From NCBI RefSeq assembly GCF_002854065.1, contig NZ_CP024151.1: a DNA stretch of 64,000 bases; one strand, written 5' to 3'. The stretch comes from Escherichia coli. GTDB lineage: Bacteria > Pseudomonadota > Gammaproteobacteria > Enterobacterales > Enterobacteriaceae. This document shows, one piece after another, positions 4,623 to 8,838 of this stretch; position 1 is the stretch's first letter, and each line of letters begins with the position of its first letter. The notes beneath the pieces are model-generated. The model was not told the origin of the DNA. It made no database searches and worked only from the letters and a program-made list of their open reading frames with translations. The position numbers were made by a program, and so were the translations under genes.

Positions 4623-4853
4623 ATGCGCACAGTTTCGATATTTAAAAACGGCAATAACCGCGCCATCCGTCTGCCCCGGGACCTGGATTTTGACGGCGTC
4701 AGCGAGCTGGAGATCGTCCGGGAAGGGGACAGCATCATTCTGCGTCCCGTCCGGCCGACCTGGGGCTCGTTCGCGCAGCTGGACAGGGCCGATCCGGACT
4801 TTATGGCGGAGCGTGAGGATGTGGTCAGCGATGAAGGACGCTTTGAGCCATGA
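4623..4853 (+). CDS. vagC: Second VagC/VapB antitoxin copy
   Basis: 76-aa ORF about 90% identical to the first copy (MRTVSIFKNGNNRAIRLPRDLDFDGVSELEIVREGDSIILRPV...). Confidence 0.8.
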   Translation: MRTVSIFKNGNNRAIRLPRDLDFDGVSELEIVREGDSIILRPVRPTWGSFAQLDRADPDFMAEREDVVSDEGRFEP

Positions 4854-4993
4854 AGAAAACCTGGATGCTCGACACTAACATCTGCTCGTTCATCATGCGC
4901 GAGCAGCCGGCAGCGGTGCTGAAGCGCCTGGAGCAGGCGGTGCTGTCAACGCCACGATGTTTGACCGTTATTTGCCATTTTCATGCCCGCTAA
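4850..4993 (+). pseudogene. vagD: Truncated vagD/vapC (PIN toxin) remnant
   Basis: MKKTWMLDTNICSFIMREQPAAVLKRLEQAVL matches the vagD N-terminus for about 32 codons, then homology ends at about 4945 where IS21-family-derived sequence begins; the reading frame runs into unrelated sequence and stops at 4993. Confidence 0.75.
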
Positions 4994-5003
4994 GATACTT
5001 TCG

Positions 5004-5787
<784 letters not shown>

Positions 5788-5791
<4 letters not shown>

Positions 5792-6429
5792 AACAGCTCC
5801 TCATAGGCACTCAGTGGTCGATGTTCCACCTGACTGACCTGCTGCCAGAGCGGGGCGTGATGCTCCGGCACTGTCTGCCAGCCAGACGATGCCGGACAGA
5901 GGCGATGTGAGGCCACCAGTTTCTCATTACTGTAGATCCGCAACTCGTCATCCAGCGATATTCGTATCGATACTGGCTGACCACACAGCGCTTCGGGAAC
6001 GCTGTAACGATTACCACCAACCTCGATATAGCTGTCCCAGGACACATGGCGGATGTCGAAGTAACTGGTATCGAAGTCCGTATCCGGTAACGGCTGCAGA
6101 TGTTCCTGCTCCAGCGCGAAGCGCTGTTCCGGCGTTTCTTTGAACTGGCGAAGCTCCCGTTTGTCAGCCACATCGGCTATCCATTGCTCCAGTTGTTGAT
6201 TAACATGAGTGAAGCTGTCGAACCTGCGGTACCGGACGAAGAAGTTCTCCTTGAGGTATTTCACCATCCGCTCAACCTTACCTTTTGTTCTGGCCCTGCG
6301 TGGACGGCATGCCCGTGGCAGGAAGTTATAGTGGTCGGCCAGCAACAGGAATCCGGAGTTGAACACGACTTTCCCGTTGTTATTCTTCAGCACCGCAGCC
6401 TTCTGGTTATCAACCAGCACCGTTTTCAC
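5788..6429 (-). pseudogene. istA: istA (IS21-family transposase) C-terminal fragment
   Basis: Translation ...[24 protein letters not shown]... is characteristic of the IstA C-terminal region; the N-terminal catalytic part is absent. Confidence 0.7.
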
Positions 6430-6990
6430 ACAACCACCGAATTTGATCCCTGAAAACTGTCAGCGCTGCGAGGACGAAGAAAGTATTACGGCTAAAGCCG
6501 TAATACCTCCCCATCCAGCTTCAAGCTATGTAGAAACTTATGTGGGTAGAGCAGTCCCGACAGGGCAGTACCGCATTGACAGGCCGTCAGGGCCACTTAC
6601 GAGCTTGTATGACAAGGGGGGCCGTCTGGATATAGCGAATTATTGTACGGTAAGCCTTTTTTGAACAGCCTTACCTATTGCTATAGAGGGGAACTCCTAC
6701 GTTATACGCCGCTTTCAGGGGATTCGACCTTAATGAGACAACTCAAATATGATCGACAACTTAAACGCGATAGTTGCTGATAAAATCAATCCATTACGCG
6801 TTTCAATTGATTAAATAATGCACTTAATGTACAAAAATTCCCGATCTCAAAACTGAACCCTAAAGATACCAGGCATCTCCCCCAGGAAGCGCCCTCATGC
6901 GTTTTCCTGTTCCGCCCCTGCCACCTACCTTCTGTTTCATACTTGTTGTATTATTGTTTTTGTTTTCAATCCCCAAGGAGACGTCGCTAT

Positions 6991-7158
6991 ATGACTGTGC
7001 GGGAGACAGAGGAAAACATTGAACAAATCTTCCCTGAGCTTTCGAACTTAATTGATATTATTAATAAATGGCTTTCCCATGGAAACATTGATCCTGAACT
7101 GGCACACTTCATCATTTATCTTCTTGATTACCTAACCACCACACACAAAAGCATATAA
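6991..7158 (+). CDS. Small hypothetical protein (55 aa)
   Basis: ATG at 6991 preceded by AAGGAG at 6976-6981; a rho-independent terminator follows at 7274-7301. No family recognised. Confidence 0.45.
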   Translation: MTVRETEENIEQIFPELSNLIDIINKWLSHGNIDPELAHFIIYLLDYLTTTHKSI

Positions 7159-7273
7159 AAATTTTCCTTGCACATCCATTTTTTTGCGAATATTATTATT
7201 CCTGCTGAATATGATTCAATATCGCACGCTACTCATCCATCCCAGGATAATGAGTACATAGGTTGAAGTTTCA

Positions 7274-7301
7274 ACACCCCCATTACGGGGGTGTTTTTTT
7301 T
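7274..7301 (+). terminator. Rho-independent terminator
   Basis: 8-bp GC-rich stem ACACCCCC / GGGGGTGT with a 5-nt loop, followed by a T7 tract. Confidence 0.7.
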
Positions 7302-7776
7302 ACCAATAAACACAAATCACACCATCGCCATACTCTGTTTGCCAGACATCGATTGGTAAATATGCGTAACTCGCTATAATACAAAAAGAAAAATCAGAAC
7401 CAGAAACCAGTTTCCAGATAAAAAACACCCTCCCGAAGGAGGGGACAGACACATTCATATTTCCCAAAACAGGAATTTTTATTTTTATGACGCATTAATG
7501 AAGTTACTTCATCTCCAGTAGATTAACTTCATTTAAAGTGGCGATCAATCATATTTATTACGACTCTAAACTATTACAACAACCACAATAAGATATCACC
7601 TCAAATATAAAAGATAACTCTTACAAAAACGTTCCGAAAACAAAAAATACAGATAAACACCAATAAAAAACAGAAAACTCTTACACATTTAAAGATGGTA
7701 AAATAATATAGAACTGTTAGTCTAATGGAGAAGGCGCATCTGATTCAGAGCAATCTATTGCGAAGAATCAGAGTAA

Positions 7777-7815
7777 CAGGGCCCCATGATATAATCATGG
7801 GGCCCTGTTGCTTTT
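7777..7815 (+). terminator. Strong hairpin terminator (13-bp perfect stem)
   Basis: CAGGGCCCCATGA-TATAA-TCATGGGGCCCTG followed by TTGCTTTT. Confidence 0.6.
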
Positions 7816-8059
7816 ACAGATGTAAAAACGACCAATCATTTAACATCTGTTATCGGCACCGCCCCGGACGGGTTCGGCGCAAATATGGTATGGTACCAGC
7901 CCGGCAATTCACCTGCCGTGCAATCTGACGAAGCAGTACCGGCGTATGCAGATATATCGTCCAGACATATCTGCCGCATTCAGGCGGTGAGTAAAGCCTT
8001 CTCTCTCAAAAGAGGAGCAACAGTTATCCACAGATTCTGGGGATAACTGCGAAAAGAAT

Positions 8060-8200
8060 ATGTGCCAGGAAAGTCGGCTCCCGGGAAAAAGACCGCTGGC
8101 GGCGCAGCTGCTGGATACGAAAGCTGAGCTGAAAGGATCCCGGGAGGACGTCCGTAAACTTCAGTCCCTGGCCCGTCATGACGGGAAGGTGAAAAAGTGA
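8060..8200 (+). CDS. Small hypothetical protein (46 aa), first gene of an overlapping pair
   Basis: ATG at 8060; its TGA stop (8198-8200) overlaps the GTG start (8197) of the next ORF in a GTGA junction. Not in the ORF track because it is under 60 aa. Confidence 0.35.
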   Translation: MCQESRLPGKRPLAAQLLDTKAELKGSREDVRKLQSLARHDGKVKK

Positions 8201-8838
8201 ATGCGGACACCTGGACCCGCCTGCAGGCCTTCCGACATGCTCTGGAGCTGACTTCCTGTGAGGCTTCTCTCACCGCCGGGTATGATCACCTGAAGGATTT
8301 CCCGGCCGGTTGCAGCGAGCTGGCCAGCCAGACGCTGACTGATTATCTGACGGAAGACGGCAGCAACCTGTACTCCTGTATTGTCGGTATGCAGTGGGAT
8401 AATGGTCCTGGCAGATACGGCCACGTCATTGCCGCCCCTGCCAGGGACTATATCGACCTGACCCTTGATCAGTTTCCAGGCTATCATAACCGGATTGTGG
8501 CAGAGCCCGTTGAGTCCGGCGGACAGCTCGCGGCAGACCTCAACAGGGAGCCTGCCATCAGTACAGCTGATGGAATAGTGGCCAGCGCATCAGATAAGGT
8601 TAATTACATTACTGAACAGAAAAATCGCCAGCCAATGGTGATCATTACAGAATGTTACAAGCTGATCAGAATAACGGCAAGATTTATACCAATGTGCCAG
8701 TCATCTCAACTCTTCCAGCACCAGGTATTCCCTCGCTTATTTATCATTTCAGACGTTGGCTCCTGCAGTTTGTCCAGGAACACCTTAGATCGTTTAGCTA
8801 CTGACTGGAAGGTGACACTGTCCATCCTGTCGCTATAG
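8197..8838 (+). CDS. Hypothetical protein; 3' end uncertain
   Basis: 213-aa track ORF starting at GTG; no recognisable domain; the tail overlaps a convergent minus-strand ORF (8706-9026), so the true stop is uncertain. Confidence 0.35.
   Translation: MNADTWTRLQAFRHALELTSCEASLTAGYDHLKDFPAGCSELASQTLTDYLTEDGSNLYSCIVGMQWDNGPGRYGHVIAAPARDYIDLTLDQFPGYHNRIVAEPVESGGQLAADLNREPAISTADGIVASASDKVNYITEQKNRQPMVIITECYKLIRITARFIPMCQSSQLFQHQVFPRLFIISDVGSCSLSRNTLDRLATDWKVTLSILSL

Follow-up and report, generated by a model that had tools for sequence, protein, structure and literature searches.

The 55-aa open reading frame (ORF) at positions 6991-7158 (plus strand) of the window, the 64,000-nt stretch of Escherichia coli contig NZ_CP024151.1 analysed here, is, to judge from sequence comparisons, a real protein-coding gene under purifying selection. 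As a whole, the explanation that we consider probable is that this gene and the small RNA UptR form a module on a read-through transcript, situated within a decayed ColE1-type plasmid insertion in F-plasmid DNA. A preliminary description of the locus had presented the ORF as a self-contained transcription unit with its own terminator, of the type known for small regulators, immunity proteins or antitoxins. F is the most studied plasmid, yet most current annotations miss the 55-aa gene, and we know of no prior discussion of the ORF upstream of UptR. The selected frame, its physical joining to uptR and its ColE1-type origin as sole cargo provide a cheap, testable starting point; unless a function emerges, the practical impact is modest.

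Location and distribution

From position 6440 onward, the window consists of classical F-plasmid DNA with 99.6% identity to NC_002483 40858-38998, and the F plasmid integrated in XL10-Gold is likewise 99.6% identical to this part. The ORF corresponds to NC_002483 40140-40307. The segment is located between the pif/TIR genes and RepFIB; in pif-less relatives, the pif/TIR side is replaced by ccdAB and RepFIA. Among the 72,556 plasmids of PLSDB, 362 contained the 1.1-kb segment, as did 365 of 5,426 complete E. coli genomes; 15 of the copies are chromosomal (Hfr-type). The locus had been described as strongly AT-rich, which was confirmed by a GC fraction of 0.33-0.38 over 6801-7800 (about 0.35 at the locus) compared to 0.52-0.58 on both flanks.

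Left of 6440, F sequence gives way to an IS21 remnant in the window. Within 4623-6440, vapB is intact and vapC is cut after approximately 35 codons by the degenerate IS21, in which istB is frameshifted and istA truncated and whose other end abuts the F-derived segment at 6440. F (L003 7779-8015) contains an unannotated 78-aa ORF at window positions 6440-6664, and the 5' end of this ORF is replaced in the window by the IS21 remnant. In the commonest haplotype, 9 bp of it (6624-6632) are deleted in frame, and no Pfam family was found for the 78-aa ORF. A 76-bp stretch (7665-7740) is present in the window, F, and some relatives, and missing from the most common (L001-type) haplotype. Absent from the window is the F segment L003 6254-7433, a divergent two-gene unit that codes for a TIR-domain protein and a 96-aa protein and adjoins pifC and pifA. 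The two proteins look like a defence-type pair; pifA, beside the TIR unit in F, codes for a KAP P-loop NTPase.

Reading frame and diverged homologues

The ORF extends from ATG to TAA (stop codon 7156-7158), and its translation is identical to that quoted previously. The product is WP_000218294.1, labelled 'hypothetical protein'. A minority of records annotate it; most current RefSeq/PGAP annotations omit the gene, including that of the record identical to the window. By itself, the length of the ORF is not significant and lies within chance expectation: when the 851-nt islet was shuffled with dinucleotides preserved, 45% of the resulting sequences contained an ATG ORF of at least 55 aa. The combination of such an ORF with a Shine-Dalgarno match of at least 5 nt was obtained in only 1.8% of the shuffles.

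Homologues were sought exhaustively with HMMER among 1.84 billion representative proteins, and then by a profile search. The HMMER search yielded P0020, a protein of 63 aa with 67% identity to the 55-aa protein, which is carried by mobilizable circular plasmids of the ColE1 type, 4.5 kb in size, that occur in E. coli and Salmonella (e.g., L054). These plasmids encode Rop, MobC/NikA, a relaxase, MbeD, and RNAI. The profile search added P0023 (55 aa, 64-73% identity) from L062, an E. coli island or plasmid fragment referred to as lineage C, where the neighbours are a GerE-type regulator, a bactofilin, YuaE, and an autotransporter. A further HMMER match, P0021 (718 aa), was set aside as a low-complexity repeat protein. 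A word-indexed protein search returned near-identical copies and broken variants only. Profile protein searches, tblastn of PLSDB, and a lineage C search of complete RefSeq E. coli genomes did not widen the family, and no member was detected among 100,044 species-representative genomes by terminator-motif or peptide-pattern scan. Within the reach of these searches, the family is very small and unclassified, with three lineages known.

The three pairwise comparisons (Nei-Gojobori) all showed an excess of third-position differences. F and the ColE1-type lineage share 74.5% nucleotide and 67.3% amino acid identity, with 9/11/22 differences at the three codon positions and a dN/dS of 0.23. For F and lineage C, the identities are 67.3% and 63.6%, the differences 12/14/28, and dN/dS is 0.15. 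The ColE1-type lineage and lineage C are the most distant pair (62.3% and 48.1% identity, 16/17/28 differences, dN/dS 0.29). Equal frequencies of synonymous and non-synonymous changes had been named in the preliminary description as an argument against the gene. Because dN/dS against the two diverged homologues is 0.15-0.29 and third-position changes are in excess, we regard the ORF as coding. In the alignment of F with the ColE1-type lineage, the ORF contains a single indel of 3 nt, while the downstream non-coding part is indel-rich.

A chance frame, with conservation due to a function at the RNA or DNA level, such as an upstream element or a precursor of UptR, might account for the central 30 nt (AACTTAATTGATATTATTAA), which are nucleotide-identical in F and the ColE1-type plasmid. 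The shuffling result for ORF length would also fit, as would the lack of database relatives beyond the three narrow lineages. Nevertheless, we give this reading hardly any credence. The low dN/dS is confined to the ORF frame, the remaining two frames showing a value of 1.83 and 3-9 stop codons. The frame is open in all three lineages at 62-75% nucleotide identity, whereas only 17-26% of the runs in random-mutation simulations were stop-free, and none of these (0/768, 0/566, and 0/494) reached the observed ratios. Moreover, lineage C possesses the ORF without UptR.

Translation and transcription signals

A Shine-Dalgarno sequence had been claimed eight nucleotides upstream of the ORF. The motif AAGGAG is indeed present at 6975-6980 (plus strand); the spacer to the ATG, acgtcgctat, comprises 10 nt. 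The ColE1-type plasmid L054 has kept the motif as AAGGAGA, and lineage C has GGAG at a distance of 9 nt from its ATG. The ColE1-type lineage has ACG in place of the ATG, no canonical in-frame start codon was found there for the small-protein frame, and the upstream stretch with TATTAT is deleted. With ACG and no in-frame start, the gene must therefore be dispensable or already inactivated there, and, as far as the sequence tells, this copy looks recently silenced.

A consensus promoter scan gave no convincing sigma-70 promoter 5' of the ORF, and TATTAT at 6949-6954 (plus strand) was not reported by it. This hexamer, which is kept in F and lineage C, is devoid of a good -35 element. The surrounding sequence CTT(G/A)TTGTATTAT(T/C)GT is common to F and lineage C, and we infer that TATTAT is the best candidate for the -10 element of an ORF promoter.

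In a long fold, the Shine-Dalgarno region pairs as CAAGGA/UCCUUG with 7165-7170. This pairing was dismissed as probably a chance event because its partner lies within a 13-nt stretch that is missing from the ColE1-type lineage. A second ORF of 41 hydrophobic residues (MRFPVPPLPPTFCFILVVLLFLFSIPKETSLYDCAGDRGKH; 6897-7022, plus strand) has AGGAAG 7 nt upstream, begins within a ColE1-like patch described below and extends past the start codon of the 55-aa gene. Natural variants with frameshifting indels at 6902, 6956, and 6978-6979 argue that it is not a gene.

Variation within the F lineage

Variation was assessed in 42 full-length copies (9 plasmid records and 33 metagenome contigs) representing 21 haplotypes over 6440-7664. 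Polymorphic sites numbered 20 in 551 nt upstream, 2 in the 168 nt of the ORF, and 40 in 506 nt downstream. The ORF thus had the lowest SNP density in the block, and its deficit relative to the flanks (2/168 versus 60/1,057 nt) corresponds to P of approximately 0.004-0.006. Several indels were found in both flanks, and the only ones within the ORF came from one contig of 1.2x coverage. This deficit suggests purifying selection on the ORF inside the F lineage itself. The dN/dS test has no power here because the ORF contains only two substitutions, one synonymous and one non-synonymous. Conservation in homologous plasmids, proposed earlier as a check, was found: in 355 of 361 F-type plasmids the protein is identical, with ATG, Shine-Dalgarno sequence, and full length intact, and the two diverged lineages retain the open frame.

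The most serious alternative, which we nonetheless judge unlikely, is that the gene was functional on the ancestral ColE1-type plasmid and is a silent passenger in F, in AT-rich DNA of the H-NS type, with UptR as the only functional element. Such a relic would be in keeping with a selection signal that derives from between-lineage comparisons, given the two substitutions of opposite kind within F. Truncated, fused, and in-frame-deleted variants of the ORF occur at low frequency, the promoter scan found nothing for it, the gene is mostly left out by PGAP, and the ColE1-type lineage is already without the ATG and the -10-like element. A silent passenger would not be expected to be the least variable stretch among 21 haplotypes between indel-rich flanks, nor to have its ATG, Shine-Dalgarno sequence, and length preserved in nearly all F-type plasmids. 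Furthermore, lineage C has independently retained the ATG, the Shine-Dalgarno sequence, and exactly 55 codons.

UptR and the proposed shared 3' end

Downstream of the ORF, a covariance search identified UptR (Rfam RF02568) at 7204-7295 (plus strand), where the score was 123.3 bits (gathering score 100) and model positions 1-92 of 92 were covered. The window is therefore like the UptR family in containing a full-length member, which has a single mismatch to the family consensus and a fold z-score of -3.3; the sRNA proper measures 92 nt, and with its U-tail it extends to 7303. UptR is a gene separate from the 55-aa ORF and has its own promoter, TTGCAC-17-TATTAT (7168-7196, plus strand), for which the promoter scan gave a match at 7169-7196 and which begins 10 nt past the stop codon of the ORF. 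The 5' end of UptR at 7204 agrees with the start predicted from this promoter.

UptR was reportedly described by Guigueno and co-workers in 1997 as a 92-nt untranslated RNA acting as multicopy suppressor of the toxicity of an unfoldable envelope protein, DsbA'-PhoA. It has scarcely been followed up; a full-text literature search gave a single paper naming the sRNA, and that in passing. The homologue in the ColE1-type plasmid L054 scored 35 bits (E 0.004), below the gathering score. There, the promoter is kept as TTGCAC-17-TATCAT, that is, with both hexamers and the 17-nt spacing. UptR nucleotides 14-25 (CAAUAUCGCACG) are identical in F and the ColE1-type homologue, and this predicted single-stranded segment is the likely seed. 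A duplex scan of the 64-kb window with two single-stranded segments of UptR revealed no target above the shuffled-seed background.

The textbook terminator that had been assigned to the ORF (7274-7301) is real as far as hairpin and T-run are concerned: a stem at 7273-7295 with 9 pairs (6 of them G-C) and a loop of 5 nt is followed by 8 T's up to 7303 on the plus strand. It is, however, the terminator of UptR. The hairpin is not a chance structure, because it terminates an Rfam match above the gathering threshold, and because it belongs to an already described sRNA the ORF is not a self-contained unit. Between 7158 and 7303, no terminator-like site other than that of UptR was detected on the plus strand. 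Together with the separate promoter of UptR and the unconvincing promoter of the ORF, this removes the ground for a self-contained transcription unit. An annotation habit is thereby corrected, in that a hairpin past a small ORF need not be the terminator of that ORF.

Because no terminator separates the ORF stop codon from UptR, an mRNA of the ORF would have to cross uptR. We propose a two-gene module with the small-protein gene as its 5' half and uptR as its 3' half. The order of stop codon, UptR promoter, and sRNA, with no other plus-strand terminator, suggests that the small-protein mRNA would continue through uptR as far as the UptR terminator, UptR being its 3' untranslated region. A second, independent source of UptR would be its own promoter. 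The small-protein frame of the ColE1-type relative even runs across the UptR promoter. UptR is absent from lineage C, where the ORF and the convergent minus-strand terminator described below are present; protein and sRNA are thus not obligatorily linked, since this lineage has one without the other.

Neighbouring signals 3' of UptR

A terminator scan identified a convergent intrinsic terminator at 7428-7443 (minus strand; CCCTCC-loop-GGAGGG followed by a T-run), which is conserved in all three lineages as GGAGGGGACAGACAC. Just upstream of it on the minus strand (7420-7520), the sequences GAATGTGTCTGTCCCCTCC..., AATGCGTCATAA, and AATAAAAATTCCTGT are where F and the ColE1-type plasmid agree best within the module, and the core of this conserved sequence by the terminator is also retained in lineage C. 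A conserved TTGAT(C/G)-17-TAA(T/C)CT could be the corresponding promoter, which would give a minus-strand RNA of approximately 95 nt. The fold statistics of this putative RNA are weak, with a z-score of -2.3 in F and -0.04 in L054. The best sigma-70-like site of the region (TTGGTA-16-TATAAT, 10 of 12 matches; 7353-7380, plus strand) stands between the two convergent terminators and points to the right, where approximately 800 nt without an obvious gene follow.

In lineage C, an intact basic ORF of 71 aa (L062 5379-5594, minus strand) is convergent with the small gene and ends at the shared minus-strand terminator. It was considered as a partner gene and rejected, being degenerate in F and the ColE1-type plasmid, where only the last ~10 codons are recognisable, and having no Pfam family.

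Properties of the 55-aa protein

The protein has a pI of 4.6 and a net charge of approximately -6, and neither a signal peptide nor a membrane segment was found in its sequence. AF2 (single sequence) predicted a hairpin of two helices (residues 3-30 and 35-54; pLDDT 80.6), the helical hairpin being a generic fold. Foldseek of this model against the PDB returned generic helical matches only (best E 1.3). The structure-prediction check suggested earlier thus gave a hairpin and nothing specific. Among the residues invariant in the three lineages are R4, E5, E7, E11, I13, F14, E16, S18, L20, I21, D22, K26, L28, S29, I33, P35, A38, and the stretch F40-IIYLL-45. Searches of Pfam, NCBIfam, PHROGs, PADLOC, and PDB sequences gave sub-threshold noise only, in agreement with the earlier statement that no family was matched. 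By these predictions, the protein is acidic, cytoplasmic, and a two-helix hairpin. Our best guess is that this small acidic protein most likely acts by binding, so as to titrate or modulate a partner, rather than as a catalyst.

The role favoured by the preliminary description, that of a small regulator, immunity protein or antitoxin standing alone with a terminator of its own, appears very improbable to us. The protein is small, acidic, and plasmid-encoded, and in F-type plasmids the gene adjoins maintenance functions (ccdAB, RepFIA, RepFIB), as would suit such a role. Against it stand the assignment of the terminator to UptR and the lack of a toxin, bacteriocin or immunity partner gene next to the ORF in F, the ColE1-type plasmid or lineage C; outside lineage C, the 71-aa minus-strand ORF is not intact, and it has no family. 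No conserved neighbouring ORF and no match to a toxin-antitoxin or defence model (PADLOC, Pfam, NCBIfam) emerged. On the 4.5-kb ColE1-type plasmid, the module with UptR is the sole cargo beside mob, rop, and ori.

The protein resembles Rop/Rom of ColE1 plasmids (PF01815) in size (~55-63 aa), acidity, predicted helix-turn-helix hairpin, and occurrence on ColE1-type plasmids. In contrast to these similarities, the sequences are unrelated: PF01815 did not match the protein at E up to 10, and hhalign against the Rop of L054 gave a probability of 0.4%. Moreover, a true Rop is encoded on the same 4.5-kb plasmid as P0020. A Rop-like four-helix bundle was rejected on the hhalign result and on a poor AF2 model of a glycine-serine-linked pseudo-dimer (pLDDT 58, pTM 0.40).

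Origin of the AT-rich islet

Three pieces of the window are homologous to the ColE1-type plasmid L054. The left piece (a), a 69-bp patch at 6861-6929, is 86% identical to L054 3252-3320 and 81-87% identical to approximately 1,467 small mobilizable ColE1-type plasmids. It aligns to pPCP1 (L052) at 1501-1569, the RNAI of which is located at 1853-1959. The patch corresponds to a site approximately 90-160 nt upstream of the ColE1 origin, in the 3' part of the RNAII primer, with the RNAII sense on the minus strand of the window. An assignment as ColE1 primosome-assembly (n') site was discarded, as the mapping to pPCP1 and L054 puts the patch inside the RNAII primer region. The middle piece (b) is the module of ORF, UptR, and minus-strand terminator (6974-7558; 72% identity to L054 3898-4454). 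The right piece (c), at 8020-8064, matches a site just downstream of the origin (82% identity to L054 3085-3129), with matches of 73-83% in about 100 small mobilizable plasmids.

Read around the circular plasmid, the succession is c, origin, a, RNAII/RNAI, b, mob, rop, and back to c; F has a, b, c. Because the three homologous pieces stand in circularly permuted order, they indicate that the AT-rich islet (~6930-7780) with its flanking patches is a decayed integrated ColE1-type plasmid. A single circular plasmid, opened near its origin, would have integrated into an F ancestor between RepFIA and RepFIB, and the RNAI/RNAII core, mob, and rop would have been lost by subsequent deletion. Compared to L054, approximately 530 bp of the primer region are missing between the left patch and the ORF. 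RNAI (RF00106) was not matched in window positions 6000-10200 at E up to 1, whereas L052 and L054 have one each. The F islet is thus like a ColE1-type replicon in its homologous, permuted pieces and unlike one in being without RNAI, the RNAII promoter, this stretch of primer region, rop, and mob. By its sequence content, it is a relic and not a functional replicon. To our knowledge, a decayed ColE1-type insertion in F has not been described.

Comparison with known systems

Several sRNAs are encoded in 3' untranslated regions. MicL in cutC and DapZ in dapB have their own promoters, and CpxQ is processed from the cpxP mRNA, the two forming an envelope-stress pair. A small coding sequence followed by an sRNA with a common 3' end is, from its sequence, best filed as a new example of this known arrangement. 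Like MicL/cutC, DapZ/dapB, and cpxP-CpxQ, the locus has its sRNA directly past the stop codon and, as read from the sequence, a terminator that coding sequence and sRNA would share. Like CpxQ, UptR is tied to envelope-protein toxicity.

With cpxP-CpxQ and SgrS-SgrT as models for a protein and an sRNA on a shared transcript, one may speculate that the imported ColE1-plasmid module has two products, the small protein and UptR, which act in the same process, the relief of envelope or export-protein toxicity, and that F has retained both. We consider this improbable. If true, F would have kept the module because it makes F's own envelope machinery less costly, and a new family of small proteins, acting in concert with a plasmid-borne trans-acting sRNA, would have its first characterised member in the 55-aa protein. 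The locus also departs from its parallels: unlike these 3' untranslated region sRNA loci, the family includes a lineage with the protein and without the sRNA, and, unlike in cpxP-CpxQ, the protein upstream of UptR is a predicted cytoplasmic acidic hairpin and not a periplasmic stress protein.
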